A stretch of DNA of 64,000 bases from Candidatus Woesearchaeota archaeon. GTDB lineage: Archaea > Nanobdellota > Nanobdellia > Woesearchaeales > GW2011-AR9. Within the stretch, counting starts at the first letter, position 1, and every line of letters starts with the position of its first letter. The stretch covers positions 445,907 to 509,906 of the forward strand of contig JABHDY010000003.1 of NCBI GenBank assembly GCA_018676855.1, given 5' to 3'. The notes beneath the pieces were generated by a model. That model ran no database searches and was not told where the DNA came from. It saw only the letters and a list, made by a program, of their open reading frames with translations. The position numbers and the translations under genes are program-made. This document shows, one piece after another, positions 8,898-54,505 of the stretch.

Positions 8898-11800
8898 TCA
8901 TGTTTCATCTTGTTCTTCAATACGTAACTTAGACGTTAACTGTGGCCAGAAGAAATCTAATACTCCCGTTCCGGACTGTTCAACAATAGCTTCAAATCGT
9001 TGCGTACCAGTACTATCTTTTTCACAGGCCCACTTTTCTGGTAATATTGGCGGTGAAACAGCTTCTAAAGGAATGTTCCATCTTACAGGAGTATCTTCTT
9101 CAACATAATCGCATAACGGTGACGTAAACCCGTCAAATTCTGCAACAAGACGTTGTTTTTTCCGTTGATTGTCTGTAGGCGATCCCTCTTGTTTTTCTAA
9201 ATTACGTATTTCACGAATTGCTTTCACTTCAAACGCATCGTTCTTTAACACATACAAATGGTTAAAGTTCTTAGCTTCGTCAATAAATCCATCTAAACTT
9301 TCAAATTCATTATTTGTAAAAAAATCTGTAAAAAAGTTTTTCACGTTGTCCCACGTTGACGGAACAAGGTTAAACTGTTCTTTACCATACACAAGTGCGT
9401 CAAGATCCTTTGAGTACCATATGTCTGCATCCACACCAAGATCGCAACGAGAAAATTCTTCACCGTCAGCACATTCATCAAGTTGTTCAGGTTCAATGCC
9501 TAACGTGGAAAGGAAACTTGCGGTTGCAACTTTAGTTTCATCTTTATCGGTTTTGAAAGAGTTAAGAGATGTAGCAAACACAACTTTATTTTCACCGCCA
9601 TCCTTGTATCGTACAACACAAACGTTGTTCACGCACGTATTTTCTTTTGTGTCAAGTAATGTAGAATCAACTTTTGAAAAACATGTTGGGTCAGTAACTG
9701 GCGAAGATTCTAATAACTCAACGCCTTCATCAGAAGGTATAGTTTCGGTTACACCATCACCACGGAAATATTGTATTGGAGAATTTGGAAGAGTTTCATC
9801 GTACGGTCCACACGCAATCGTATACTCATCTTTTGCATCTACAAAATCTAAAAATTCTGACGCTATACGTTTTGTCCGAGTTGTCCAACTACCATCTTCA
9901 CAGTAATGGTCAAACACATATTCCGTATTGCCAATACATTGTGGAAGATTTCCTTCCGTATAAAACTCTTCAGTTGATTCTCCATAATTATCACCGGTAT
10001 AAACAAAACAACCGTCGTCCTGTGGACAGAAACCCCAATCACTTTCGTACCAATCAGTTTTAACGTCAGCTTCATTCCACGAACCGTCGATACACCTATA
10101 TGTTCTATCATCAAGAACTTCTACCATGTAGGGATCATCATTCATCGGTTCAACACACGCATATCCGTTCCAACAGAAGTTTGTGGGACAACATGCAATG
10201 CCTGATCGGAAATCGTTTGGAAGTAATTCTTCTTTATTTGAAACGTCAACATCATAATAATCTAACGGTTCTCCATCAACTATTTGTAACATTGGTTTTT
10301 CGACAAAATCTCCTTGTGGAACAGCAATATCACCCCTTCCAGCAATACCAACAGTATCATCACTTGAGCTAGTAAATTCGAGAATAATATATGCAGTATC
10401 TTCAGTATTGATCTCAGCACCGCTAGAAGCTTCTTGTGGACCTTCTTCTGACGTTCCATCATTCATTACTAATGTATATGTGGCTTTAACGTTAAGTCCG
10501 TCATATGTAAAATATAATTTATCTCCAGACACAGGAATCTTTTCTGAACGAAGAGTTTCAGTAGATGTAAGAAAAACTTTTCCCATATCCTCTAGATTTA
10601 ATCCAATATCGTCAAGGAATACATTATCTCTTAAAACCATTCTTGAATCGAACATGTCCCAATGATGAATTGTATCTGAATTTTCAGCATTAAAATCTGC
10701 ATTTGGAATAATGTTTCGTGCAGGTATTGATTTTGTAGGGGGTGTTGTGTCCCTTGATAGTTCTTCACCATTTTCATCTAAAGTAACAGTTTCAAAATCT
10801 TCTGGAGGTATTTCTTCTCCTTCTGTTTCTTTTAAAGGTTTAAGCGAAAGGACAACATCTTCAACCGTATTAGGATTATCAACATCAGCGTAACCACCGT
10901 ACGTGATACCTTCTGAGGTCCATTCGTTTACAGTTACAAATCCTTCTTTTCCTTCCTCTTTATTATACACGCTTGGAGAACAGATAAAACTTTCTTCTCC
11001 ACTTTTCTTAACAGCACAATGTTCAACATTGTCAAAATCTGTACCAAGAGAAGTACTTCCTTCTAAATCAGGTGTTAAACATCCAAAAAATTTATTTTTA
11101 CCTCTCTCATCAGTACCATACAATATTTGTTGAGGAACTTTCTTTGCAATAATGTTTCCCGGATTGTCAAATGTTTGACCTTCTTCATTCGTAATTAATA
11201 CTTCTATTGGTTCACCTTCATCATCACTAGACACAAAGTATAAATCATACAAGTATGGATGTTTATTTGTTATTGTGTATGGAAATGTTCCTGGTAATGG
11301 GTAGGTGCATGTGTCTGATTTGCAGGAGTATTTTATGTTAAAAGGCGTTTCTAAAGAATTTCCAGGAATAAAACTAAATGGATTAAGTTTTTGTGCTTGT
11401 ATTTTAAATGATGAAGCGTAATTGGATAAATCCTGACTTGATATCTCTTTATATAATCCTAAATCAATATCATTACTTATATCAAATAATCTATTTACGT
11501 CCAGATCATTATTCTGTTTTAGTGCAATATATATCCCATTGTCAAAAAAATCTCCATATAATAAATACCCCGAATCACAATAATCATTGCCTAAATGTTG
11601 CTCGCATAATATACATCTTTGAGTAATCTCTGGAAATTTATCTTCAAGATCATGTGTATTTTTGCATGAAAAATCTGTAGGAAAAGTTAATGTTGTTTCA
11701 TCAAGGAATTGTTGTATTTGATCTTTAATACTTATTGTATATATGTCTGGTGAGGAAAACTCTTGAGTAATCTTATATGTTCTTGTTGGTTCATGATAAA

Positions 11801-14213
11801 CTGTCTTTATACCAAAAATTTGATTAATATTACTAAAAGTAAGACTATATCTTCTCTTTAATTTTATAATTATATCACTTGTATAAGAATCCGTTTTTAT
11901 AAAAGAAGGAACCATACTTGTTCCATCAAATTCAACATCCATTATTCTTCCACTAGGTGCTACAATTTCAGAATTCCAACAACCATATTCTCCTTCCTCA
12001 CCAACAAAATTATCATTCTTTCCGTCACCACAACAACCATGATCTTCAGACCATGCATTTCCACCAACAACACTTTGAAAATCAGTAATGTCATCAATAC
12101 CAGAATCATAAAAAGCATTACAAATATAATCTGCTTCAGAATCATCAGAGGGTATCCATACAGAGGGATTATCATTACTTTTACCTGAACAAAAAAGTGT
12201 TGGTTCGGAATTTGTTAAATATACATTTTGTATTTCAATTGTATTTTTAATAATGTCATTATTTGAGGATGGAGATATTACAATCTTATCAACTCGCGTT
12301 AGATCATTAATGGGAATAGAAACGTGTATCCACTTACGTTGAAGATTCTCTTCATTTATTTCGCTTTCCAATAGAGGACTATTTGATGATGACCATAAAA
12401 CATTTCTTTTTAGAAGAGGAAGGTACTCTGAGTTGGACAAAGTAGTATCTTTAGCTAAAAATTCAACAGTAACATCTGCAGGAAGAGTTAATTCTTCATC
12501 AATAAAACGTACCATAAATTCTAAGTTTGTATATCCAGTAAAATCAAAAGTGTAATCTTCCCCATAATATTGTGTATATTGTTCATTTTGTTCGTTTGAA
12601 GAATCAATAATCCAATATTTATCGATAAGACTAGGATTTGGAAAGGAGTATAACGCTTCACCATACATTCTTCCTTTAATTGTATCTTTATTTACTCCAG
12701 GAACAGTACTACTCTCGGAAGCAGCATCTGATGGAACACATTCTGTCCAAGACCAATGTTTTCCCTCTTGATAACAATAAAAACGATTGCTCTTTTGAAA
12801 ATATTCTGGATTTCCTTCAGCTTTTTCTAAAGGGCCGGGAGTGGAACATTTTTTCCATTTTTTTCCATTAGAAACTATATCATAAGGAAACTGTTCTTTA
12901 TGTATAGTCATAATTGAATGTGATATTGTTTGGGCATCAATCCAACACCAATCGGTTTCACAACCTGTTTGGGCATCAATCCAACACCGATCGGTTTCAC
13001 AACCAAAAAAAGGGTTATTGTTCCCTTCTGATTCTTTATTGTATCCCACAAACCATTCTTCATCCTCTACTTTATCTTTCCTTAAACAAACAAATTGTCT
13101 GTCTTCACTATAAGTTTCAAAATCTTCAAAACCATTATTACCACAACACCCATTTCCTATAATATTTTCATCGTAGTCAAAAGAAGTTCCATCGTCTAAA
13201 CCTATATTACATACATCTTCGTTCTGATCTGCATAATCCGAATCAATTCCACAGCCTAAAACTTTTTTTACGTTTGTTTCACAGATTTCGTCACCAGCAC
13301 AACCTAAAAGTGTATCATAACCAATAACATTATCATCTATACTATTAGAACACATATCGTGCCACTTCCAAACTCCATCATTGTCTTTATCAGCATTATC
13401 AATTGATGAATCTGCATAAATAAAATGAGAATCATAACCTTCACCATTATCATTATTATTTTCTGAAATAAAAATAAGTTTAGGATATACTTCTAAAGAT
13501 TGATCATTACCTATATCATTATCAAGAACCATTACAATAACATTCCATCCCTGTGAAAAATAAAATGGATTTTCTGTTTTCCCACTATTTGAATCATAAT
13601 TTTTTTTCCTTCCAATAGAAACTTCTTTACAAGATGATAAATCATTGTTACATGTTGCATGAATAAATGACAAATCGTCATCACTATCTAAAACATTAAA
13701 ATTCTTAATATAAATATCTTCACCTTCGTCAGGTAAAACGTATGTCCAAATAATAAATGCTTGAAGAGTATCCCCGTTAAAAAGGTCTTCTATTCCGCTA
13801 CCTGTATGATATCTAGAACTAAATGGAGGATAAAAATCGTTAAAAAAATATTTTCTCTGATTTCCACTAATAAAATTATCGTAATTATTTAATATTTTAT
13901 AAAACTGTATTTCGTTTCCATATTTTGAATTTACTTCGCTTTGAAATTCATCATTTTTTAGTTTATAAAATGATTCCCACTCTAAAATAAAAGGGTCATC
14001 GTCTTCAACATTAAAAACATAACGGTCATCGTCATCGTTTGGAAAGTTAGCATGCGTCCAATAAAAATCGTCTTTTAATACACTTCCCGGTATAAAATAA
14101 TTTAAAACAAGTGAATCTCTTGTATCTTCATCAACACCAATTCCAGCAAAACTTAAGAGGACTACAAATAGAACCATCACTACAACTACTAACAACCCTC
14201 TTTTTTGTACCAT
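8898..14213 (-). CDS. Giant secreted Cys-rich surface protein (1771 aa)
   Basis: Single uninterrupted ORF. N-terminal signal MVQKRGLLVVVVMVLFVVLLSFAGIG; many Cys pairs; internal 13-aa tandem duplication GCETDRCWIDAQT/GCETDWCWIDAQT. Confidence 0.65.
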   Translation of the reverse strand: MVQKRGLLVVVVMVLFVVLLSFAGIGVDEDTRDSLVLNYFIPGSVLKDDFYWTHANFPNDDDDRYVFNVEDDDPFILEWESFYKLKNDEFQSEVNSKYGNEIQFYKILNNYDNFISGNQRKYFFNDFYPPFSSRYHTGSGIEDLFNGDTLQAFIIWTYVLPDEGEDIYIKNFNVLDSDDDLSFIHATCNNDLSSCKEVSIGRKKNYDSNSGKTENPFYFSQGWNVIVMVLDNDIGNDQSLEVYPKLIFISENNNDNGEGYDSHFIYADSSIDNADKDNDGVWKWHDMCSNSIDDNVIGYDTLLGCAGDEICETNVKKVLGCGIDSDYADQNEDVCNIGLDDGTSFDYDENIIGNGCCGNNGFEDFETYSEDRQFVCLRKDKVEDEEWFVGYNKESEGNNNPFFGCETDRCWIDAQTGCETDWCWIDAQTISHSIMTIHKEQFPYDIVSNGKKWKKCSTPGPLEKAEGNPEYFQKSNRFYCYQEGKHWSWTECVPSDAASESSTVPGVNKDTIKGRMYGEALYSFPNPSLIDKYWIIDSSNEQNEQYTQYYGEDYTFDFTGYTNLEFMVRFIDEELTLPADVTVEFLAKDTTLSNSEYLPLLKRNVLWSSSNSPLLESEINEENLQRKWIHVSIPINDLTRVDKIVISPSSNNDIIKNTIEIQNVYLTNSEPTLFCSGKSNDNPSVWIPSDDSEADYICNAFYDSGIDDITDFQSVVGGNAWSEDHGCCGDGKNDNFVGEEGEYGCWNSEIVAPSGRIMDVEFDGTSMVPSFIKTDSYTSDIIIKLKRRYSLTFSNINQIFGIKTVYHEPTRTYKITQEFSSPDIYTISIKDQIQQFLDETTLTFPTDFSCKNTHDLEDKFPEITQRCILCEQHLGNDYCDSGYLLYGDFFDNGIYIALKQNNDLDVNRLFDISNDIDLGLYKEISSQDLSNYASSFKIQAQKLNPFSFIPGNSLETPFNIKYSCKSDTCTYPLPGTFPYTITNKHPYLYDLYFVSSDDEGEPIEVLITNEEGQTFDNPGNIIAKKVPQQILYGTDERGKNKFFGCLTPDLEGSTSLGTDFDNVEHCAVKKSGEESFICSPSVYNKEEGKEGFVTVNEWTSEGITYGGYADVDNPNTVEDVVLSLKPLKETEGEEIPPEDFETVTLDENGEELSRDTTPPTKSIPARNIIPNADFNAENSDTIHHWDMFDSRMVLRDNVFLDDIGLNLEDMGKVFLTSTETLRSEKIPVSGDKLYFTYDGLNVKATYTLVMNDGTSEEGPQEASSGAEINTEDTAYIILEFTSSSDDTVGIAGRGDIAVPQGDFVEKPMLQIVDGEPLDYYDVDVSNKEELLPNDFRSGIACCPTNFCWNGYACVEPMNDDPYMVEVLDDRTYRCIDGSWNEADVKTDWYESDWGFCPQDDGCFVYTGDNYGESTEEFYTEGNLPQCIGNTEYVFDHYCEDGSWTTRTKRIASEFLDFVDAKDEYTIACGPYDETLPNSPIQYFRGDGVTETIPSDEGVELLESSPVTDPTCFSKVDSTLLDTKENTCVNNVCVVRYKDGGENKVVFATSLNSFKTDKDETKVATASFLSTLGIEPEQLDECADGEEFSRCDLGVDADIWYSKDLDALVYGKEQFNLVPSTWDNVKNFFTDFFTNNEFESLDGFIDEAKNFNHLYVLKNDAFEVKAIREIRNLEKQEGSPTDNQRKKQRLVAEFDGFTSPLCDYVEEDTPVRWNIPLEAVSPPILPEKWACEKDSTGTQRFEAIVEQSGTGVLDFFWPQLTSKLRIEEQDET

Positions 14214-46332: not shown

Positions 46333-47656
46333 CAATTCTTTTCCCATCAACCATAATATGTGTCTTTTTAAAACCAAGTTGGGCAGCCAATTCTTTCAAC
46401 ATTTCAGCTTTTTCTTTCCCGGCATGAGACGGAATGATATTTTTTGGTCGTACCAATTCAAGTAAGTCTCTATGATCTTCCCGTGCACCATGACCAGAAA
46501 CGTGAACATCAGTAAATATTCGTACATTTTTATTTCTTAGGTTCTGTTCAAGCCGGCCCCTATTTTCCTTATTCAGTTCAACGGGAATTACTGAACAGCT
46601 AAACGTGACAATGTCACCAGATTCAAAACGGAACGATTCATGTCCTTTTGCTAATCGTGAGAGAATTGCTTTCGGTTCACCCTGGTGGCCCGTACATACA
46701 ATAAGATACTTTTCTTTTCCTTCTTTCATTATCTTATGTAACATTTTATCAATCTTGTCTCTATATCCAATAAGTTTAACATCCTTTTCAAAATTGACAA
46801 GTTCAATGTTTTGTGCAGCAGTAACGTACTTAGATAATGATCTTCCAAGGAAAACAATTTTCCTGTTTAACTTTTTGCCCATTTCAATAATACTTTTTAA
46901 TCGTGCAATGTGCGACGAAAATGTAGTTACAATCATTCCCTTTCCTTCAGATTGAACGCCAAGAAGAACATCTTTTAACATTTGTTTTGCAACAGATTCT
47001 GACGGCATTTTTCTATGTTCATGTGCATATAAACATTCCATGATAAGTAACGAAATTCCTTTATCACCTAATTCTTTTAATCGTTCAAAATTCGGTTTTT
47101 TTCCAAGTGTTGGTTGCCTATCAAACTTATAATCGTTGGCGTACATAACGCTACCTTCTGGCGTGTGAAGAATAATTAGTGTTGCGTGAGGTATTGAATG
47201 CGTAACATTAACAAATTCAACTGTAAAGTTTTTTGATAATTTATATGTTGAATTAACATTCATGGGTATAATCTTGTTTGAGATGGAAAGTTTTTCATCA
47301 TGCGTTATCGCTTTTAACACTTCTGCAGTATATGGTGTACATACAATGGTTGCGTCTGGAAATAAGGGTGCAGCGTACGGAATTGCGCCTATATGGTCAA
47401 GATGTGCATGACTTGGAACTATTCCTACAACATTTTTTGTCCAATCTTTGATAAGTGTATAATCTGGAACTGCATCAGCTTTCAAAAGTTCTTTATACGT
47501 TTTAGAACGAATATCTTCTCTATCTTCTGTATAATGGATATATTTCTCCATATTGAGGCCCATATCCAAGATAACAACTTCGTCTCCTACTTTAACAGCA
47601 ACGGAGTTTCCACCCGTTTTTGTAAATCCTCCTACTGTACATACTTCTATTGGCAT
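46325..47656 (-). CDS. rnj: Beta-CASP ribonuclease (archaeal RNase J-like)
   Basis: HxHxDH PSHAHLDHIGAIP; beta-CASP motifs; 443 aa. Confidence 0.8.
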   Translation of the reverse strand: MPIEVCTVGGFTKTGGNSVAVKVGDEVVILDMGLNMEKYIHYTEDREDIRSKTYKELLKADAVPDYTLIKDWTKNVVGIVPSHAHLDHIGAIPYAAPLFPDATIVCTPYTAEVLKAITHDEKLSISNKIIPMNVNSTYKLSKNFTVEFVNVTHSIPHATLIILHTPEGSVMYANDYKFDRQPTLGKKPNFERLKELGDKGISLLIMECLYAHEHRKMPSESVAKQMLKDVLLGVQSEGKGMIVTTFSSHIARLKSIIEMGKKLNRKIVFLGRSLSKYVTAAQNIELVNFEKDVKLIGYRDKIDKMLHKIMKEGKEKYLIVCTGHQGEPKAILSRLAKGHESFRFESGDIVTFSCSVIPVELNKENRGRLEQNLRNKNVRIFTDVHVSGHGAREDHRDLLELVRPKNIIPSHAGKEKAEMLKELAAQLGFKKTHIMVDGKRIVI

Positions 47657-47704
47657 ACGTGTATGAATTTATGTATGTTTAAAAATGTTTTGAGAAAATG
47701 AAAG

Positions 47705-47808
47705 TGCGGACGGCAGGGCTCGAACCTGCGTAGGTACTAAACCAATGGATTTTGAGTCCATCCCGTTAAGTCCACAATTATTGTGTTTGACCACTCCGGC
47801 ACGTCCGC
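47705..47808 (-). tRNA. tRNA-Leu(CAA) with an extra segment of about 19 nt in the D-arm
   Basis: Minus strand: GCGGACG TG CCGG AGTGGTCAAA [CACAATAATTGTGGACTTA] ACGG G ATGGA CTCAAAA TCCAT long V-arm GCAGG TTCGAGC CCTGC CGTCCGC A. Upstream TTTATAAAAT at about -30. Confidence 0.55.
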
Positions 47809-47879
47809 GAACTATAAAATACATTTTCCTTACTATTTTATAAAACTAACTGAATATTTATAAATAAAAAAGTATTCAT

Positions 47880-48899
47880 ATGGTTGAGATGAAACGGTTC
47901 CTATTAATTATAGTATTTACATTCATTTTTATGTTTACTTTAGTGCAAGCACAGATTGATACGACATTTACGTTTACGTCTCCCGATAACGAAGATTTTA
48001 CTGGTTACTTTGCAACAATTCTATTAGACGATGCTGTACAAAAAGTTGTATTAGACAATTCAGAATATACTCTTGCATTAATTGATGGACAATATACTAC
48101 AGATATAATACTTGACTCATTTGACACTCCAACTCCTGACTATTACGGTTCAAAGAGTATTACTGTTCCTTCTGACACATCAATTCCTTTCTTTGTATAT
48201 CCAATAGGATATTTACAGGGAACTGTTGTTGATACAAATGGTAATCTTGTACCAAGTGCACGAATTCAGTTTACATGTTACTCATCAATAGCTGTTGAAT
48301 ATCCACATACTTCTGACGCTGCAGGGTTCTTTACCGTTCCACACATTCCTGTTGGCCGATGTACAATTATTGCGTCTGCTCGCAATGTTGCAGGAAAATC
48401 AGATGTAGAGATTCGTCGTGGTGAAGATACGTCTGTTGAAATTGTTCTTGGACAAACTATAGATTCTTCATATTCCATGTTTAAAATTATTTTATGGGGA
48501 TTTATCGTTCTTGCTGTTATTATTGTCCTTATCTCTTCTTTAGTAAGGCGTAACGTTCAGAAACGAAAGATAGTGTCTCACCACGAAAAAAAGATACAAG
48601 AAAGAAAACGAGAAAATCAACAAGAAGATCAAGAAAAACTAGAAGAAAAACATACTATTTCAAAACAAACCCAAGCACTACTTCAAACATTGTCAGAAAA
48701 GGAACATAAAGTAGTGACGTTCTTAATGAATCATGGTAATGAAGGATCACAAGCACAAATACGGCACGCGACACATATCCCTCGAACGAGCATGGCGCGT
48801 ATACTTCAAACGTTAGAACGGAAAAAGATAGTTCAAATTGAGAAACAGGGTAAAATGGTTCGTGTTGAACTAACAGAACTCTTTCTTGGTAAGAAATAA
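47880..48899 (+). CDS. Membrane-tethered transcriptional regulator: signal peptide, extracellular CarboxypepD_reg-like domain, TM, cytoplasmic wHTH
   Basis: Signal peptide FLLIIVFTFIFMFTLVQA; beta-sandwich motifs GYLQGTVVDTNGNLVPSARIQF, CTIIASARNVAGKSDVEI; TM IILWGFIVLAVIIVLISSLV; basic linker; C-terminal LSEKEHKVVTFLMNHGNEGSQAQIRHATHIPRTSMARILQTLERKKIVQ (MarR/TrmB-like wHTH). Confidence 0.55.
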   Translation: MVEMKRFLLIIVFTFIFMFTLVQAQIDTTFTFTSPDNEDFTGYFATILLDDAVQKVVLDNSEYTLALIDGQYTTDIILDSFDTPTPDYYGSKSITVPSDTSIPFFVYPIGYLQGTVVDTNGNLVPSARIQFTCYSSIAVEYPHTSDAAGFFTVPHIPVGRCTIIASARNVAGKSDVEIRRGEDTSVEIVLGQTIDSSYSMFKIILWGFIVLAVIIVLISSLVRRNVQKRKIVSHHEKKIQERKRENQQEDQEKLEEKHTISKQTQALLQTLSEKEHKVVTFLMNHGNEGSQAQIRHATHIPRTSMARILQTLERKKIVQIEKQGKMVRVELTELFLGKK

Positions 48900-49041
48900 A
48901 TTTTGGGCACTTTTTCTATATTCATTATTTGTTTGGACACAAATTTTGGTTCTAATTAAGACATTTACCCTCTCAATGTATATATATTAGTATGCCTTTT
49001 AGGGTAGTATGAGAAACATAAAATTACACGAGGTAATAAAA

Positions 49042-50922
49042 ATGAATATTAAAAATATACTATTGGTAGCAATACTTGTATTGTTTGCAAGTTCAGTATT
49101 TGTTGCGGCGGCACCTGACGTTGATTTAGTGGTAGATGACTTTTATCTAACATCGGTAAGCGGACAAAAATACAACTTGGATGATACATTTACGGCTGGA
49201 GAAGAAATAAATGTACATCTTACTGTACGAAATTGGGGTACGTCAGACGTTACAGATACGTTTCAAGTAGAGATTATGGCTTGTCGACCAGACGGAACAC
49301 GATGTCATATTCCTTCAAGTGTAGAAATACACTCGTTAGGAGCAGGAAAAGAAGTAACATACACAAGATCATTTACATTTTCTGATAATGATATTGTGAA
49401 TGGCAAATCTATGATTAAAATTCACGTTGATGGCGATAATCAGGTTGTAGAAACAAGTGAAGGAAATAACATTGAATCTGAAGAATTAAATGTACAAAAA
49501 TCGTTTGGTTCTCTATTTTTTGGTGTTGCTGTTAATGATTGGCCAGCACATAAAAATACTGCATTAACAAAAAATCTTAAGAACGCGTATGTTAACATGT
49601 ACACGGTTGTTCTTGATGGTGATGCATTTAAAGTAGTTAGTGTTGAAACTACAAGTACTGGTGCTAGTGAGTATCCTGTTGCACGGTTTACAATTGAACC
49701 AAGTCAAATGGTATACTTTGAAGGGTTTAGAACACGATCTGGAGCAGATCAGGGAGCAACTCAAAAGAAAGCTCTTTTATGGACCGCACCACCGTACAAA
49801 GTGTTTGGACCAAATATGTTATGTCAAACAGATTATACTAATGTTGACAGAATGTTACGGGGAAGTGAATCGTATGCATGCGCAACAATGTTAGCAGTTC
49901 CATACAAAGACATTGAATCTGTTGACTTTACATATCCAGATTTAACTGTAACATCTTTAGCTTACGGCGATACGTCATTTAAAGCGTTAGTATGTAATAC
50001 TGGAGAAGAAGCAGCGGCTAACTTTAAGATAACCTTTGGAGCGAATAACAAAGAAAATACGTTAACATACGTTCCAACATTGGCTGCAGGAAGTTGTGTT
50101 GAAATTTCTTCATGGGGATATAGCCACTTTGGAATTCAAGATACGTATGATACTGTAGAAGCAAAAGTTGATGTTGATTCGTACAACGACATTGTTGAAA
50201 GTGATGAAACTAACAATGGTGCTGTTCTTACACCCTCTTCAGTTTCAGAACGAAATTGGGTAGAACTTGTACTTGATAATAAGCGAGTTACTGGTCAAGC
50301 TATTGAGTATGACATAGTTTCAGCTACTTCGTATCCGACATCACAAAACTGTGTTGTTGAAAATGGAGAGAAGTTGTGTATTGAAAAAACGTACGTGACA
50401 GTTGGTAGTGATGGACGATACGACAAAATCATTTTTTGGATACGTGTTAATAGTGTTGGAACAAAAACGTTTGAACTTAATGCACGGGATAATAGGTTTA
50501 TTGCATTACGTGGGTTAGACAACGAGTACTTTACTGTTGAGCTTAATCCAATGCTAATGAACTTACGGATTTATCCTACAACTGATGGGGTAGCAGAAAG
50601 TGTTGTTGACAATGGTCAATTACCTGAACCTACAACAAATCCACAGTTCCTTGGTGACAGAAGCGTTTGTACAACTGGATGTTCATACAAAGGTAAATGT
50701 TTGGACGCAGGAACACGTATCAAGTTAGGAGATGTTGGCGAGTTTTGTAATTGGGACGGAACTATGGCAAAACAATTTGACGCTGGTGAATCATGTTCAA
50801 ACAATTACGAATGTGGAACGAACAGTTGTGTTAGCGGTAGTTGTGTTGATTTAGCAAAACGGTTAGACGATCAACAAAACTTACTTGAGAAAATTCTTGA
50901 GTGGTTAAAGAAACTATTTTAA
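49042..50922 (+). CDS. Secreted surface protein with two CARDB domains and Cys-rich C-terminus
   Basis: Signal peptide MNIKNILLVAILVLFASSVFVAAA; CARDB-like PDVDLVVDDFYL...GEEINVHLTVRNWG and PDLTVTSLAY...ALVCNTGEEAA; C-terminal CTTGCSYKGKC...CSNNYECGTNSCVSGSC. Confidence 0.6.
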   Translation: MNIKNILLVAILVLFASSVFVAAAPDVDLVVDDFYLTSVSGQKYNLDDTFTAGEEINVHLTVRNWGTSDVTDTFQVEIMACRPDGTRCHIPSSVEIHSLGAGKEVTYTRSFTFSDNDIVNGKSMIKIHVDGDNQVVETSEGNNIESEELNVQKSFGSLFFGVAVNDWPAHKNTALTKNLKNAYVNMYTVVLDGDAFKVVSVETTSTGASEYPVARFTIEPSQMVYFEGFRTRSGADQGATQKKALLWTAPPYKVFGPNMLCQTDYTNVDRMLRGSESYACATMLAVPYKDIESVDFTYPDLTVTSLAYGDTSFKALVCNTGEEAAANFKITFGANNKENTLTYVPTLAAGSCVEISSWGYSHFGIQDTYDTVEAKVDVDSYNDIVESDETNNGAVLTPSSVSERNWVELVLDNKRVTGQAIEYDIVSATSYPTSQNCVVENGEKLCIEKTYVTVGSDGRYDKIIFWIRVNSVGTKTFELNARDNRFIALRGLDNEYFTVELNPMLMNLRIYPTTDGVAESVVDNGQLPEPTTNPQFLGDRSVCTTGCSYKGKCLDAGTRIKLGDVGEFCNWDGTMAKQFDAGESCSNNYECGTNSCVSGSCVDLAKRLDDQQNLLEKILEWLKKLF

Positions 50923-51007: not shown

Positions 51008-51508
51008 CTATTTAATCCCTTGCAACTGCCGTTCTATATCTCGTAACTGACCCTCAAGTTGAGCTAAATTATCATCTTCAAGTTCTTGTTTAGGAGGAGC
51101 AGTTGTTGGTGCAGGTTGATTTACCACTTGTACTTGTGGTCCAATGCCCGCTGCTTTTTGTTGCTGTTCAGCTACGTTCTGCGGTGTTACTGCTCGTAAC
51201 TTACCTTTAGGAAGATATTTTCGCAATTTATCATTTACAAGAACGTTAAGTTGTTTCACTTCAATTTTTAACTGCGTAAAAAGTGCAACTTTTTCTTCCT
51301 GAATTCGTCTAAACTTTTCATAGCCCTGCATAAAGATAATAACTTCACGAAGTGATTCTAACAAATCTTTACGTACAAGTTTAGGTTCCGATACTTGAAC
51401 CATATAGTCTGGTTCAGTACTTTTTGTTTCAACCTTCTTAACAGGAGCACGTCTTTTAGTTGTTCTCTTTCGTGTCGTCTTTTTCTTTTTTGCAGCCATT
51501 TTAGTCAT
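51008..51508 (-). CDS. Coiled-coil protein P3 with Lys/Arg-rich N-terminus
   Basis: Start taken at MTKMAAKKKK, 4 nt after the P2 stop (the track ORF start would overlap P2). KKKKTTRKRTTKRR tail, then two coiled-coil segments. Confidence 0.5.
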   Translation of the reverse strand: MTKMAAKKKKTTRKRTTKRRAPVKKVETKSTEPDYMVQVSEPKLVRKDLLESLREVIIFMQGYEKFRRIQEEKVALFTQLKIEVKQLNVLVNDKLRKYLPKGKLRAVTPQNVAEQQQKAAGIGPQVQVVNQPAPTTAPPKQELEDDNLAQLEGQLRDIERQLQGIK

Positions 51509-51512
51509 GTTT

Positions 51513-51740
51513 TTAGAAATGTTCAGGTTCATTAAGAGAATGATCAATAAAATCAATCTTTTTCTCAACTTCTACTAACGTATTCTGCCAGACTTCTAAC
51601 TGGTGATCTTCTTCATTTTTAAGATCGTGAATCTTTGCAAGCGTTTCTTTCGCTTCTTCCATTTTTGTTCGAACCATCCGTAGAAGGCTTAAAACGTCAT
51701 CATATTCATCAATTTTTACAAATACAGGCATTCTATCCAT
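51513..51740 (-). CDS. Coiled-coil protein P2 (75 aa), paralogous to the P1 C-terminal domain
   Basis: Start 2 nt after the P1 stop. PVFVKIDEYDDVLSLLRMVR aligns with P1 PLYIKMNVYQRILGDLDALK. Confidence 0.55.
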   Translation of the reverse strand: MDRMPVFVKIDEYDDVLSLLRMVRTKMEEAKETLAKIHDLKNEEDHQLEVWQNTLVEVEKKIDFIDHSLNEPEHF

Positions 51741-51742
51741 TT

Positions 51743-52219
51743 TTATTCACCTTGGCCCTTGAATAATACTTTATCCGCAATCAAGATACGGTCGTGTACA
51801 TTTCGCATAATCTTTTTGAGCTTTTCAAAATTATTTTCTTCATTGAATTCAGAATTTTCCAACCGTCTGTTTGCTTCTTGAAGAGATGTAATGTCAACTT
51901 TTAATGCGTCTAAATCTCCGAGAATACGTTGATACACGTTCATTTTAATGTATAATGGTTCACGTGTTAGTGATCGTTCTGGTTGTTGCTGCCGTACAGG
52001 TTGTTGTTGTACCTGTTCTTGTGGTGGTACTTCATCAACGTCTTCCTGAGGATATGCACTCTGTTTTTTAAATCCTGCAGCTTTTTTAATTTCTTCTGGT
52101 TCAATGACTTTCGCGGGTGGAGATGTAGTAGGAAAACGTAATGCTTTTTCGTCAAATGCTGGTCCTGGAGGAGGAGCATCTTGCATAATTTTCTTTTTCT
52201 TACCAAACAACCATCCCAT
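51743..52219 (-). CDS. Coiled-coil protein P1 of a three-gene operon (N-terminal MGWLFGKKKK, Pro/Gln-rich linker, C-terminal coiled coil)
   Basis: Promoter-like TTTTTAAAC and RBS GAGGT upstream. Residues 98-117 PLYIKMNVYQRILGDLDALK are paralogous to the P2 N-terminus. Confidence 0.55.
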   Translation of the reverse strand: MGWLFGKKKKIMQDAPPPGPAFDEKALRFPTTSPPAKVIEPEEIKKAAGFKKQSAYPQEDVDEVPPQEQVQQQPVRQQQPERSLTREPLYIKMNVYQRILGDLDALKVDITSLQEANRRLENSEFNEENNFEKLKKIMRNVHDRILIADKVLFKGQGE

Positions 52220-52315
52220 TTTAATATCTTACCTCAAGAACGTTTAAAAACTTTGTTTAGTATTCTTACGTAGTAAAAACATAATATAAGCGAACCTGTA
52301 TTCTCCTCATATTCG

Positions 52316-54505
52316 ATGAAAATACTATTTTGTTTTTTCTTGTTTATTATTCTTATAGTGTGTACGTCCATTTCTATAGCGGATATTACAATTAATGAGG
52401 TGATGTACGCTCCCACGACAGATTTTGGCGGTTCGTCTAATGAATGGATCGAATTATACACTTATGATACTATGCAGTACAATTTATCTGAATGTACATT
52501 AAATAATAAATCACTTCATGGAATAATAAACGATTCTTCTTATGTAATTCTTGTAAGAAATAAAGAAAAGTTTATTGAAATTTATGAAACTAATTTTACT
52601 TCAATAGTAGAAGTAAGTTTTGGCCGTGGGTTATCAAATAAAGGTGCTGAAATTATTCTTAATTGCAATGATAATTTTGACAATATGGATTATGATGGAA
52701 CTTTAGGAATACAAGGAAAAACGCTCGAAATGAATAAAGATGGTGAATGGAAAGAAAGTTTGGTAGATGGTGGAACTCCTGGAATGAAGAATAGTGTGTA
52801 CGATTTCAGTTATGATTATTCTGATTTAGAAATTACTGAAATAATGGTCGATCCATTAGGAGATGATGATGCAACTAAACCATTGGGTGAATGGATAGAA
52901 TTGTACAATTCTGGTGATGATTCAGTTTATTTAGATGGTTTAGTTTTATATGATGAAGATGACGCTAACGAGTTATATATAACCAAAACTAATACTAATA
53001 CTTTAGAGTTGTGTAGTAAATGTTATACTGTTGTGTACAGAGATAACGATGGAGATTTTGATTTAAGCAAAGTTGAAGACTCTGTACGATTATATACTGG
53101 ATATCCAATTTCAGACAATCTCCTTATTGATGAGATTAGTTTTACAAATGCAATAGAGGGAACAAGTTTTAGTAAGTTTGATAATGGATGGTACAAAACA
53201 GTTCCAACTCCAGGAAACGAGAATAAGTATACTGCGGGATGTGATTGGAAGATTGAAATAGACATGAACAATTCTATTTTTCATACAACGGATATGGATT
53301 TTGATATTATTGTTAGTAGGATTTTTGGAGAGAAACAAAATGTTACTGTAAAAGGTATTATTGAAAATGTTTTTGGCGAACCCATAAAAGAATATTCTCC
53401 TTGGACAAATAAAAAGATCACAACAAGTAATACAAAAAAATATACGCCAAATTTGCATGAGGGTGTCTACCAGATACGTTTTTGGATTGAAAGTCTTATG
53501 TGTGGCGATACTGACAATACAAATAATGATGTAACTAAACTTGTTGCAATTAACCCACAATATAAAGAAACTACATCATCTCTTGAAATTGAAAGAATGT
53601 ATTTAGGGAATGATAATAAAGCAGAATGGGGAGATCAATTTACGGCAAAGATTAATGTGTATAAAGGTAATGAAACAAGGTACTCTGTTCAGGTATGGGT
53701 AGAAAAAGATGATGAAAAAGTTAGTAAAACTACAAAGTTAAGTATACATGATCAGTATAAACAATATCCATTAACTATTCCCATTCAACTTGAACCAAAT
53801 TGTAATAATAAAATTGATGATGGAAATGTATTGTTAGTTGTGGAAGCGTTTGGATTACGTACAGAGAAAGAGTTTCTTGTTAAAGGCGTTGACAATGAAA
53901 TTTGTAAAGATTATTTAGATTATATTAAGGATCAGGAAGATGAAATTGAACGGAAAAAAGTTGGATATAGAATAATAGAAAAACCTTTAGAAATATTCTC
54001 TGGAGAAATATTTCCTATCAAAGTTCAGTTATTAAACGGTAATGATGTTCAACCATATACTGTCTGGAGTTATATGTATAGGGGAAGTACATGTTATTCT
54101 TGTGACGGTTCTGAAAGGGACGGGAACAAACAACGCGTTATTTTACAACCTGACGAAGTACAAATTGTTGAATTTCTTTTGAAAGCTGATGATGTACAGG
54201 AAGGTGAGTATAAGATTAAAGTTAAAGTTCAGAAAGGCAATCAGAAAACTGTTAAAGATATTACAGAAACGATAACTGTTGTGTCTGAGAAGAAAACATT
54301 GTCTGAATCGTTACCTTTATTTGTTGAATCTGGTGGTGGAAATGTCTCTTCTCCATTTTCTTCAAAAACTCGCGTGTTTGGCAATTCCTTAACGGGAGGG
54401 GTTGTTGTCTATGAATCAAGTGGCGTGAAAGCGAAGAAACTTATTCCTGTATTGTTGTTCGTTACCTTCGGCTTAGTATGTTTGGTGTTGATTTGGAAGA
54501 AGTAG
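52316..54505 (+). CDS. Surface protein with two lamin-tail domains (LTD) and C-terminal TM anchor
   Basis: Signal peptide; LTD signatures ITINEVMYAPTTDFGGSSNEWIELYTYD and EITEIMVDPLGDDDATKPLGEWIELYNSGDDSVYLDGLVL; C-terminal LIPVLLFVTFGLVCLVLIWKK. Confidence 0.6.
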   Translation: MKILFCFFLFIILIVCTSISIADITINEVMYAPTTDFGGSSNEWIELYTYDTMQYNLSECTLNNKSLHGIINDSSYVILVRNKEKFIEIYETNFTSIVEVSFGRGLSNKGAEIILNCNDNFDNMDYDGTLGIQGKTLEMNKDGEWKESLVDGGTPGMKNSVYDFSYDYSDLEITEIMVDPLGDDDATKPLGEWIELYNSGDDSVYLDGLVLYDEDDANELYITKTNTNTLELCSKCYTVVYRDNDGDFDLSKVEDSVRLYTGYPISDNLLIDEISFTNAIEGTSFSKFDNGWYKTVPTPGNENKYTAGCDWKIEIDMNNSIFHTTDMDFDIIVSRIFGEKQNVTVKGIIENVFGEPIKEYSPWTNKKITTSNTKKYTPNLHEGVYQIRFWIESLMCGDTDNTNNDVTKLVAINPQYKETTSSLEIERMYLGNDNKAEWGDQFTAKINVYKGNETRYSVQVWVEKDDEKVSKTTKLSIHDQYKQYPLTIPIQLEPNCNNKIDDGNVLLVVEAFGLRTEKEFLVKGVDNEICKDYLDYIKDQEDEIERKKVGYRIIEKPLEIFSGEIFPIKVQLLNGNDVQPYTVWSYMYRGSTCYSCDGSERDGNKQRVILQPDEVQIVEFLLKADDVQEGEYKIKVKVQKGNQKTVKDITETITVVSEKKTLSESLPLFVESGGGNVSSPFSSKTRVFGNSLTGGVVVYESSGVKAKKLIPVLLFVTFGLVCLVLIWKK

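Follow-up and report, generated by a model that had tools for sequence, protein, structure and literature searches.

A membrane-tethered winged-helix protein of Candidatus Woesearchaeota as a candidate regulator of the adjacent surface-protein gene

A 64,000-nucleotide stretch of a Candidatus Woesearchaeota genome (assembly GCA_018676855.1, contig JABHDY010000003.1; hereafter the window, G+C ~33%) carries an open reading frame (ORF) at 47880..48899 on the forward strand, which encodes a protein of 339 residues and lies directly upstream of a gene for a secreted surface protein of the CARDB-domain type. The coordinates of the ORF are exactly those given in a preliminary description of this DNA, which had taken the product for a membrane-tethered transcription factor. 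Homologues at 25-73% identity mark the ORF as a real gene, and its start codon may be Met4 (47889), which corresponds to a nearly invariant methionine among relatives. Here we describe the architecture of this candidate regulator, its family and the conserved promoter that lies between the two genes. Statistics on topology refer to 64 family representatives of 25-72% identity, and the loci of relatives are denoted by L numbers.

Results

Protein architecture and membrane topology

The features of the protein are as follows.

47880..47951 (+): signal-peptide-like segment, residues 1-24 (n-region KR, 17-residue h-region, VQA/Q), from hydropathy; present in 61/64 relatives, with Ala24 nearly invariant
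47955..48194 (+): predicted N-terminal extracellular beta-sandwich, residues 26-105, without a Pfam family; conserved TPxxDYYG motif; strands in the AlphaFold2 (AF2) model
48198..48449 (+): predicted second extracellular beta-sandwich, CarboxypepD_reg/transthyretin-like, residues 107-190 (Pfam, Foldseek)
48477..48545 (+): single transmembrane (TM) helix, residues 200-222, followed by RRNVQKRK; hydropathy peak 2.97
48546..48662 (+): charged juxtamembrane helix and disordered linker, residues 223-261, of variable length in the family; 13 K/R and 8 D/E
48663..48887 (+): predicted cytoplasmic domain of the winged helix-turn-helix (wHTH) type, residues 262-336, with recognition helix RTSMARILQTLER and wing KKIVQIEKQGKMV (AF2 secondary structure, family Pfam matches, PDB profile, Foldseek)

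A hydropathy scan found only two hydrophobic segments in the protein (residues ~4-26 and ~200-222). The full-length AF2 model, built on six homologues with a predicted local distance difference test score (pLDDT) of 83, contains a helical signal-like segment, two sandwiches (26-105 and 107-190), a continuous helix that includes the TM segment (197-249), disorder at 245-259 and a canonical wHTH (262-336). The pLDDT falls below 50 at residues 245-259, and the linker is the gappy part of the family alignment. Hydropathy, the model and the Pfam matches of the family thus bear out three elements of the preliminary description, namely one TM helix, a highly charged linker and a C-terminal MarR/TrmB-like wHTH.

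The same description had envisaged about 190 residues of CarboxypepD_reg/prealbumin-like ectodomain. The length and the beta-sandwich fold were right, but the region comprises two domains and only the second is CarboxypepD_reg. This second domain matches PF13620 at residues 112-190 (E 3.4e-10, 40.6 bits against a Pfam cut-off of 32.3 bits), as do 50/64 relatives. In the N-terminal sandwich, residues T83, D87, Y88 and G90 are conserved in the family alignments. Foldseek searches with the ectodomain matched carboxypeptidase D domain II (1qmu, root-mean-square deviation (rmsd) 2.9), 3e8v and CnaB-type pilin and adhesin domains, Gram-positive pilins included. SlaB was also among the matches, more weakly (8qox_B, E 1.8e-5).

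The window protein has six K+R within the 15 residues after the TM helix and none within the 15 before it; the family means are 6.0 and 1.9, respectively. The outside part holds on average 2.7 cysteines per protein and the inside part 0.2; across the family, C133 is invariant and C161 nearly so. The N-terminal hydrophobic segment is present in 61/64 members, and the tail after the TM helix measures 95-136 residues throughout. Because the K+R bias, the cysteine distribution and the signal-like N-terminus all agree, the sandwiches are placed outside and the wHTH inside, and this architecture and topology are very probably correct. Each of these markers contradicts, across the 64 members, the reverse orientation with an outside wHTH. 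The N-terminal segment looks like a Sec-type signal peptide with a putative cleavage site at VQA/Q, Ala24 being the -1 residue. The preliminary description of this segment as a cleavable-looking signal peptide agrees with its n-h-c pattern, its presence in 61/64 members and the near invariance of Ala24. An uncleaved signal anchor would orient the other domains identically.

The winged helix-turn-helix domain

The wHTH is the most conserved part of the protein. Across 19 relatives, residues R295, R302, T303, R307, K315, K316 and K325 of the recognition helix and wing are invariant, and the domain as a whole carries 13 K/R against 7 D/E. In the window protein, the score is 19.8 bits for MarR_2 (cut-off 27 bits) and 16.4 bits for DUF7343 (PF24034; cut-off 27.6 bits). 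At the level of the family, 45/64 relatives match DUF7343 (E up to 0.01; best 1.9e-11), 37/64 match TrmB and 29/64 match MarR_2. The DUF7343 matches in 45 of 64 homologues imply that the domain is related to, or a divergent member of, DUF7343, and by these profile matches the wHTH is closest to that Pfam family. Literature searches for DUF7343 returned nothing.

A profile of the last 84 residues, made from 39 relatives, was compared with the PDB and matched only winged-helix proteins (E 4e-4 to 1e-2), among them XylR, SlyA, a MarR/EmrR protein, SorC, CodY, LrpA, Lrs14 and the winged helix of RPC34. A word-indexed search with the wHTH profile yielded only four small proteins. When modelled alone, the C-terminal domain reached a pLDDT of 89 and a predicted template modelling score (pTM) of 0.76, with its secondary elements (H, helix; S, strand) in the order H-H-S-H-H-S-S. 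The best PDB matches of this model in Foldseek were HpaR-DNA (7el3), MftR-DNA (8ylg), the archaeal centromere binder AspA-DNA (5k5q) and ArsR/SmtB repressors, at template modelling scores (TM-scores) of ~0.62-0.74. In the full-length AF2 model the core is flanked by one short helix before it (262-270) and a four-residue helix after it. The earlier proposal of a C-terminal helix-turn-helix (HTH) therefore holds at three levels, namely family-level Pfam matches, the PDB profile search and the fold. Sequence and model together make it likely that the C-terminus is a DNA-binding wHTH.

A conserved promoter spacer with phased boxes

The 110 nt between the stop codon of the candidate regulator gene (48899) and an ATG at 49009 align without gaps in 16 distinct lineages. 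This conserved promoter spacer is the main new result of the analysis. Its elements are listed below, together with the gene that they precede.

48901..48909 (+): box 1, tTTTGGGCA, 2 nt after the stop codon and at ~-105 from the downstream ATG; column identity 0.72
48931..48939 (+): box 2, gTTTGGACA, at ~-75; column identity 0.68
48944..48949 (+): weaker TTTTGG after box 2, from the spacer alignment
48968..48976 (+): proximal element CCCTCTCAA (consensus cCCnCnCAA), 36 nt after box 2, at the expected position of a TFB-recognition element (BRE); identity 0.68
48979..48988 (+): TATA box of the CARDB promoter (TATATATATT), from the spacer alignment
49009..50922 (+): CARDB-domain secreted surface protein, 637 residues, candidate target (Pfam CARDB E 1.1e-22; signal peptide, 16 Cys)

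The two boxes are of the TTTGGGCA type, and wherever a lineage has kept both, their spacing is exactly 30 nt. Box 1, box 2 and the proximal element have mean pairwise identities of 0.72, 0.68 and 0.68, compared with 0.43 and 0.39 in the spacers between them. The four-fold degenerate sites of the adjoining wHTH-coding region have an identity of 0.365 in the same lineages, so that neutral sites are saturated. The sequence of the proximal element is TGCCCGCCCAA in many lineages and there holds the reverse complement of the GGGCA core. With the copies of L016 (below) taken into account, the core is probably GGGCA(G), occurring in either orientation. Together, proximal element and TATA box have one occurrence in the window at 0 mismatches. 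In the tract after the TATA box the family consensus is TGTTTGAC..TTTAGGGTA, for which the window has AGTATGCC..TTTTAGGGTA. The same layout recurs in three lineages that were fetched later (L031, L034, L035), and a GC-rich relative (L016) has four copies of CTGCCC(G/C) before a conserved TATA-TTTGTTTTGAC.

A position-weight scan of the 64-kb window for two boxes 29-31 nt apart found one strong pair, at 48900 (summed score 23.9). The three other pairs had summed scores of at most 15.5, which is within the range of shuffled controls, and the exact box shows no enrichment in the window. The box model derives from the very loci that were scanned; only the uniqueness in the window and the recurrence in later-fetched loci are independent of it. 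Two further candidates were set aside. A second exact TTTGGGCA pair (12929/12968) was rejected as an operator, being part of a 39-nt tandem repeat within a coding region and on the other strand. A box-like pair at position 141 of L016 lies in GC-rich, coding-like sequence and was taken as chance. The repeat at 12929-13006 (CETDRCWIDAQTG twice) sits in a gene at 8898-14213 (-) for a Cys-rich secreted protein of 1771 residues. RNA structure was likewise rejected as the cause of spacer conservation, since RNAalifold gave -0.63 kcal/mol with four pairs and no covariation and Rfam found nothing in the spacer.

The downstream gene has two candidate starts, a conserved ATG at 49009, ~25 nt after the TATA box, and an in-frame ATG at 49042 that is preceded by a Shine-Dalgarno (SD) sequence. 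The second start lies 24-45 nt past the first and is preceded by GGAGG or GAGGT (window 49009-49044, L001, L010, L012, L017, L024-L027). In at least nine lineages both starts are in frame with no stop between them. The sequence suggests dual initiation of the CARDB gene, leaderless and SD-led.

The promoter of the candidate regulator gene itself is of a simpler kind:

47855..47866 (+): TATA box (ATATTTATAAAT), ~20-30 nt before the start; the only conserved block upstream, in four lineages

The short distance from this TATA box to the start codon suggests that the mRNA is leaderless or near-leaderless. Autoregulation through the same boxes was rejected, as this promoter has no GGGCA boxes. The gene at 52316, which encodes a protein with Lamin Tail Domains (LTD), had been put forward as a second place to look for an operator; no boxes occur in 52220-52316, and it was dropped as a target. 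In L031 (2925-3057) the conserved promoter of the box-TATA type follows the regulator gene, and ~130 nt with a T-run and a second TATA box then precede the next ORF. This stretch would be a short unannotated transcript or the remnant of a lost target gene.

Pairing with secreted surface proteins

A CARDB homologue follows the candidate regulator gene in 15/19 loci. The pair is also kept in L007, L009, L010, L015, L019 and L024, where the other flanking genes of the window went undetected in the fetched stretch. The position directly upstream of a surface-protein gene, noted in the preliminary description, is thus confirmed, and the link between the two genes is strengthened by the 15/19 pairing and by the phased boxes of the spacer. 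Downstream of more distant members (25-33% identity) lie other secreted proteins. These include an acidic protein of 190 residues in L031 and a PKD-repeat protein in L016. In L032 (548 residues) and L036 (1110 residues) the downstream proteins match S_layer_C ('S-layer like family, outer domain') with 26.4 and 31.2 bits, above the cut-off of 23.9. The CARDB protein has an N-terminal signal peptide and lacks a C-terminal TM helix, and the other downstream proteins that were checked are alike. Literature searches for Woesearchaeota together with CARDB returned nothing. One region of the CARDB protein recurs in several proteins whose genes adjoin other family members:

50677..50919 (+): C-terminal Cys-rich module and amphipathic aromatic tail (..SCSNNYECGTNSCVSGSCV..LLEKILEWLKKLF) of the CARDB protein, shared by several of these otherwise different proteins

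The module has the pattern ..C.NNYEC.TNSC.SG.C.., followed by the aromatic tail, and no Pfam match. Over CARDB residues 554-637 it is 48-57% identical in seven of the loci, compared with 36-46% in the N-terminal and central part of the protein in the same loci. The C-termini of the window's CARDB protein and of the S_layer_C protein of L036 are 42% identical (E 6e-20), whereas the identity of the two regulators is only 28%. In L016 the module occurs, too, in a CARDB-like, Cys-rich ORF directly upstream of the regulator gene. It is common to secreted proteins that are otherwise unrelated, of the CARDB, S_layer_C and cupredoxin-like types (window 50677-50919; L036 7741-8070; L016 869-1876).

Distribution of the family

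When 1.84 billion cluster representatives were searched exhaustively with HMMER, 769 proteins were retrieved at E up to 1e-3, and 141 remained at E up to 1e-30. Among the best 150 matches, most align over both the ectodomain and the wHTH, and the same architecture occurs in at least 141 clusters at 50% identity. Twelve genome records were found, all of them metagenome-assembled genomes (MAGs) of Woesearchaeota type. Nine are named Candidatus Woesearchaeota. The other three (L009, L013, L016; CAZIUU01, CAZXEM01, CAYYLB01) are titled 'uncultured Methanosarcinales archaeon'. In L009 and L013 a regulator of Woesearchaeota type precedes a CARDB gene, and in L013 RNase J lies upstream of the regulator. 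The Methanosarcinales label of the three is probably a placeholder or a misassignment. Public entries for the protein read 'hypothetical protein' with only PF13620 precomputed, and the family is unnamed in public sources. The wHTH, the ectodomain and the C-terminal module are each without a paralogue elsewhere in the window.

Other genes of the neighbourhood

Housekeeping genes surround the ORF (PCNA, RNase J, ScpB, GyrA). In close relatives the gene order is syntenic, running PCNA, RNase J, regulator, CARDB, three small minus-strand genes, LTD, MJ0538-like, ScpB and GyrA. A tRNA gene lies between RNase J and the regulator gene at 47705-47808 (-) (Rfam RF00005, 50.5 bits, E 2e-9) and is conserved in L001. 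The anticodon loop, CUCAAAA, points to Leu(CAA). The variable arm is long, and the region of the D-arm carries an insertion of 23 nt, probably a non-canonical intron. ARAGORN, run on 47500-48000, missed this tRNA.

The three small adjacent genes (51008-52219, -) encode proteins of 186, 75 and 158 residues without a significant Pfam match. By eye they share a similar pattern of beta-strands and coiled coil (FVKIDEYDDVLSLL / YIKMNVYQRILGDL). In L004, with a regulator of only 73% identity, the 75-residue protein reaches 99%; in lineages whose regulator has ~41% identity it stands at 67-75%. The LTD gene (52316-54505, +) encodes a surface protein of 729 residues, in which a signal peptide and a C-terminal TM anchor accompany two Lamin Tail Domains (E 1e-16); the gene is syntenic in close relatives.

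Discussion

Comparison with known membrane-bound regulators

Transmembrane transcription regulators (TTRs) are defined by a DNA-binding domain plus at least one TM region in one protein (Demey et al. 2023, PMC10269533). They were found in 367/404 archaeal species, at ~4 per genome; the text of this census has no mention of DPANN or Woesearchaeota (PMC10269533). The window protein has a wHTH together with a TM helix (residues 200-222), and the model, the Pfam matches of the family and the positive-inside bias have the wHTH facing the cytoplasm. It would probably be missed by searches that rely on Pfam thresholds, its HTH being below the cut-off. The preliminary description had called such a topology rarely described in archaea. 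This is fair for experiments, where the examples are ArnR and ArnR1 (PMC6396743), but not for genome censuses (367/404 species, PMC10269533).

It had also likened the topology to that of ToxR and CadC. As in ToxR, CadC and TcpP, a single polypeptide combines a sensor outside, one TM helix and a winged helix inside. While anchored in the membrane, these bacterial proteins control genes for the envelope or for virulence, binding direct repeats that lie upstream of the promoter (PMC10269533). However, ToxR and CadC are type II proteins with an N-terminal cytoplasmic DNA-binding domain, a C-terminal periplasmic sensor and no signal peptide, whereas the window protein is of type I. Their wHTH is OmpR-type, while that of the window protein is MarR/TrmB/DUF7343-like, and there is no sequence relationship. 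Trans_reg_C is absent in the window protein (E up to 0.1) and among the 25 most frequent families of the 64 relatives. The target would also differ, being a TATA/BRE promoter in the archaeal case. The placement of sensor and DNA-binding domain stands, but the polarity and the type of wHTH differ from those of ToxR and CadC. By its architecture the protein belongs to the known TTR class as a new variant plan and is not a ToxR/CadC member.

Among archaeal proteins, a parallel in function would be ArnR, likewise a membrane one-component regulator of a surface-structure gene that acts through two upstream boxes. In Sulfolobus acidocaldarius, membrane-bound ArnR/ArnR1 acts on a surface-structure promoter through two boxes (-43 to -84), neither of which is dispensable (PMC6396743). 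ArnR and ArnR1 are the only experimentally studied archaeal examples that we found in the literature. In architecture ArnR differs: its HTH is N-terminal, its HAMP and sensing domains lie in the cytoplasm, two TM helices form the C-terminal end, and there is neither an extracellular domain nor a signal peptide (PMC6396743). The window protein has no HAMP match. The boxes differ as well, since those of ArnR are inverted repeats (TCGAC-N5-GTCGA) and those of the window are direct GGGCA boxes.

The core fold of the MarR family matches the wHTH, but the window protein scores below the cut-off and is without the dimerisation helices. The likeness to DUF7343, TrmB and MarR_2, in fold and in sequence profile, concerns the C-terminal 70 residues; the sugar-binding domain of TrmB is lacking. 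Relative to DUF7343, TrmB and MarR_2, the domain is here fused behind a TM helix and an ectodomain. SlaB shares beta-sandwich ectodomains, a membrane anchor and a gene beside that of a large surface protein, but the alignment to 8qox_B is poor (198 columns, rmsd 14.8, TM-score ~0.19). Moreover, SlaB has its membrane anchor at the C-terminal end and is not known to carry a DNA-binding domain after it, whereas the window protein has a wHTH after its TM helix.

A proposed mechanism and the evidence against it

Taken together, the data are best explained if the protein is a one-component regulator, tethered to the membrane by a single pass in type-I orientation, that controls the adjacent surface-protein gene through the phased boxes. 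To this reading we give a probability of about 0.6. By computation, the signal-like N-terminus sends the two beta-sandwiches outside and one helix spans the membrane, and the charged, length-variable tether of 40-60 residues would let the wHTH reach DNA from the membrane. Still anchored, the wHTH would bind the GGGCA-core boxes of a promoter that starts 2 nt past its own stop codon. We lean slightly towards boxes 1 and 2 being its operator. The distal boxes, at ~-105 and ~-75 from the presumed start, are 30 bp or three helical turns apart and would thus present the same face of the DNA; a possible inverted copy abuts the BRE/TATA. Through these sites the wHTH would control how its neighbour is transcribed, a gene whose secreted, anchor-less product is a surface protein of CARDB type here and S-layer-like in distant relatives. 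Activation by recruitment of TBP/TFB is favoured, because the boxes lie upstream of BRE/TATA, in the region used by ArnR and by EarA, an archaeal activator discussed in the same study (PMC6396743). The proximal inverted copy could instead give repression or looping. Input would come from the outside domains. Given the shared module and the stalk-like ectodomain, what they sense would most economically be the envelope's state or, via its C-terminal Cys-rich module, the surface protein itself. Host contact, considered as a cue in the preliminary description, is an equal alternative.

Several observations weigh against this reading. MarR-type wHTH proteins usually bind palindromes as dimers, but no MarR dimerisation helices are seen in the AF2 model and no conserved palindrome was found. 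The preliminary description had suggested a search for a palindromic operator in the CARDB promoter; the window spacer does contain inverted repeats, but they are unconserved in the 16-lineage alignment, and direct repeats with one possibly inverted copy are found instead, so that direct boxes are favoured. Single-protein HTH matches at residues 271-333 are all below the Pfam threshold (IclR 1.9e-4, TrmB 6e-4, MarR_2 9e-4, DUF7343 8e-3), if mutually consistent in position. Signal peptide and topology were judged by rules of thumb rather than by a dedicated predictor. The proximal element may be, or may overlap, the BRE. The boxes are absent in L014, only one is present in L018, and L036 has TTCCAAG repeats instead. 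The link between wHTH and boxes is putative, and another factor could bind them. Finally, the ectodomain resembles stalk and pilin domains, including SlaB, and fits anchoring as well as sensing.

Alternative explanations

This last point leads to the possibility that the protein is mainly a structural anchor or stalk for an anchor-less surface protein, comparable to SlaB for SlaA. Its ectodomain would dock the Cys-rich module, and the wHTH would be non-transcriptional, binding a protein or tying the envelope to the nucleoid. The Foldseek matches to SlaB (8qox_B, E 1.8e-5) and to pilin and adhesin stalks are in its favour. So are the neighbouring proteins with a signal peptide and without a C-terminal TM helix, the C-terminal module that is common even where the regulators are only ~28% identical, and the two distant neighbours above the S_layer_C cut-off; the closest PDB sequence matches of the wHTH, moreover, include the winged helix of RPC34, which is not a sequence-specific regulator. 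However, no part of the protein is better conserved than the wHTH, and within it the recognition helix and basic wing; in structure the domain best matches regulators in complex with DNA, and conserved phased boxes require a sequence-specific binder. We therefore regard a mainly structural role as unlikely; anchoring and regulating are, in addition, compatible. A protein that is dock and regulator in one, whose ectodomain binds the Cys-rich module and relays its occupancy via the TM helix and tether to the wHTH on the boxes, is a tentative elaboration to which we likewise attach a low probability.

Two other explanations keep transcription in the foreground. The regulator might be active only after release, an ectodomain signal leading to regulated proteolysis in the manner of Notch, SREBP or RseA and the freed wHTH binding the boxes. 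A type-I topology with a long, poorly conserved and partly disordered linker could hold a cleavage site, and a gene for Peptidase_M50 (site-2 protease) lies near one distant member, L031. The linker is nevertheless without a conserved motif, and no protease gene is conserved beside family members. The small cell size inferred for these archaea would also bring the nucleoid near the membrane, which counts against a need for release. ToxR, CadC and ArnR, for their part, act while anchored (PMC10269533, PMC6396743), and release strikes us as quite unlikely. Least probable, in our estimate, is that the spacer is simply a strong, conserved core promoter with upstream elements, which serves an envelope protein expressed at a high level and is recognised by general factors or a different regulator; the membrane wHTH protein would then have another target, or none nearby, and the adjacency would be inherited. 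The proximal element does stand at the BRE position, and all 12 genome records are Woesearchaeota-type MAGs, so that synteny is partly inherited. Covariation does not tie the boxes to the wHTH either, being uninformative where recognition helix and boxes are both almost invariant in the lineages with loci. Yet the pair survives where all other neighbours differ, the boxes are ~0.7 identical with exact 30-nt phasing while synonymous sites are saturated (0.365), and the strong box pair is found at no other promoter in the 64-kb window.

Implications for surface-gene regulation in Woesearchaeota

Woesearchaeota and other DPANN archaea are uncultured, with small genomes and few recognisable regulators, and attachment to hosts is ascribed to their surface proteins. 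A widespread unnamed family, of at least 141 clusters at 50% identity, here gains an architecture, a candidate target gene and a candidate operator with exact coordinates. Regulation of surface genes in these organisms thereby becomes testable in vitro without cultivation. If the proposed regulation by a tethered wHTH is true, a type-I, signal-peptide-bearing protein would be added to the archaeal membrane-bound regulators. The C-terminal module shared by the neighbouring proteins is a hint that regulator and product may be in direct physical contact. Were the protein both dock and regulator, a single polypeptide would provide feedback by which the synthesis of envelope protein follows the availability of unoccupied anchoring sites, or the layer's loss when a host is contacted. 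A promoter held at the membrane could, moreover, couple transcription to secretion in these reduced-genome DPANN archaea.

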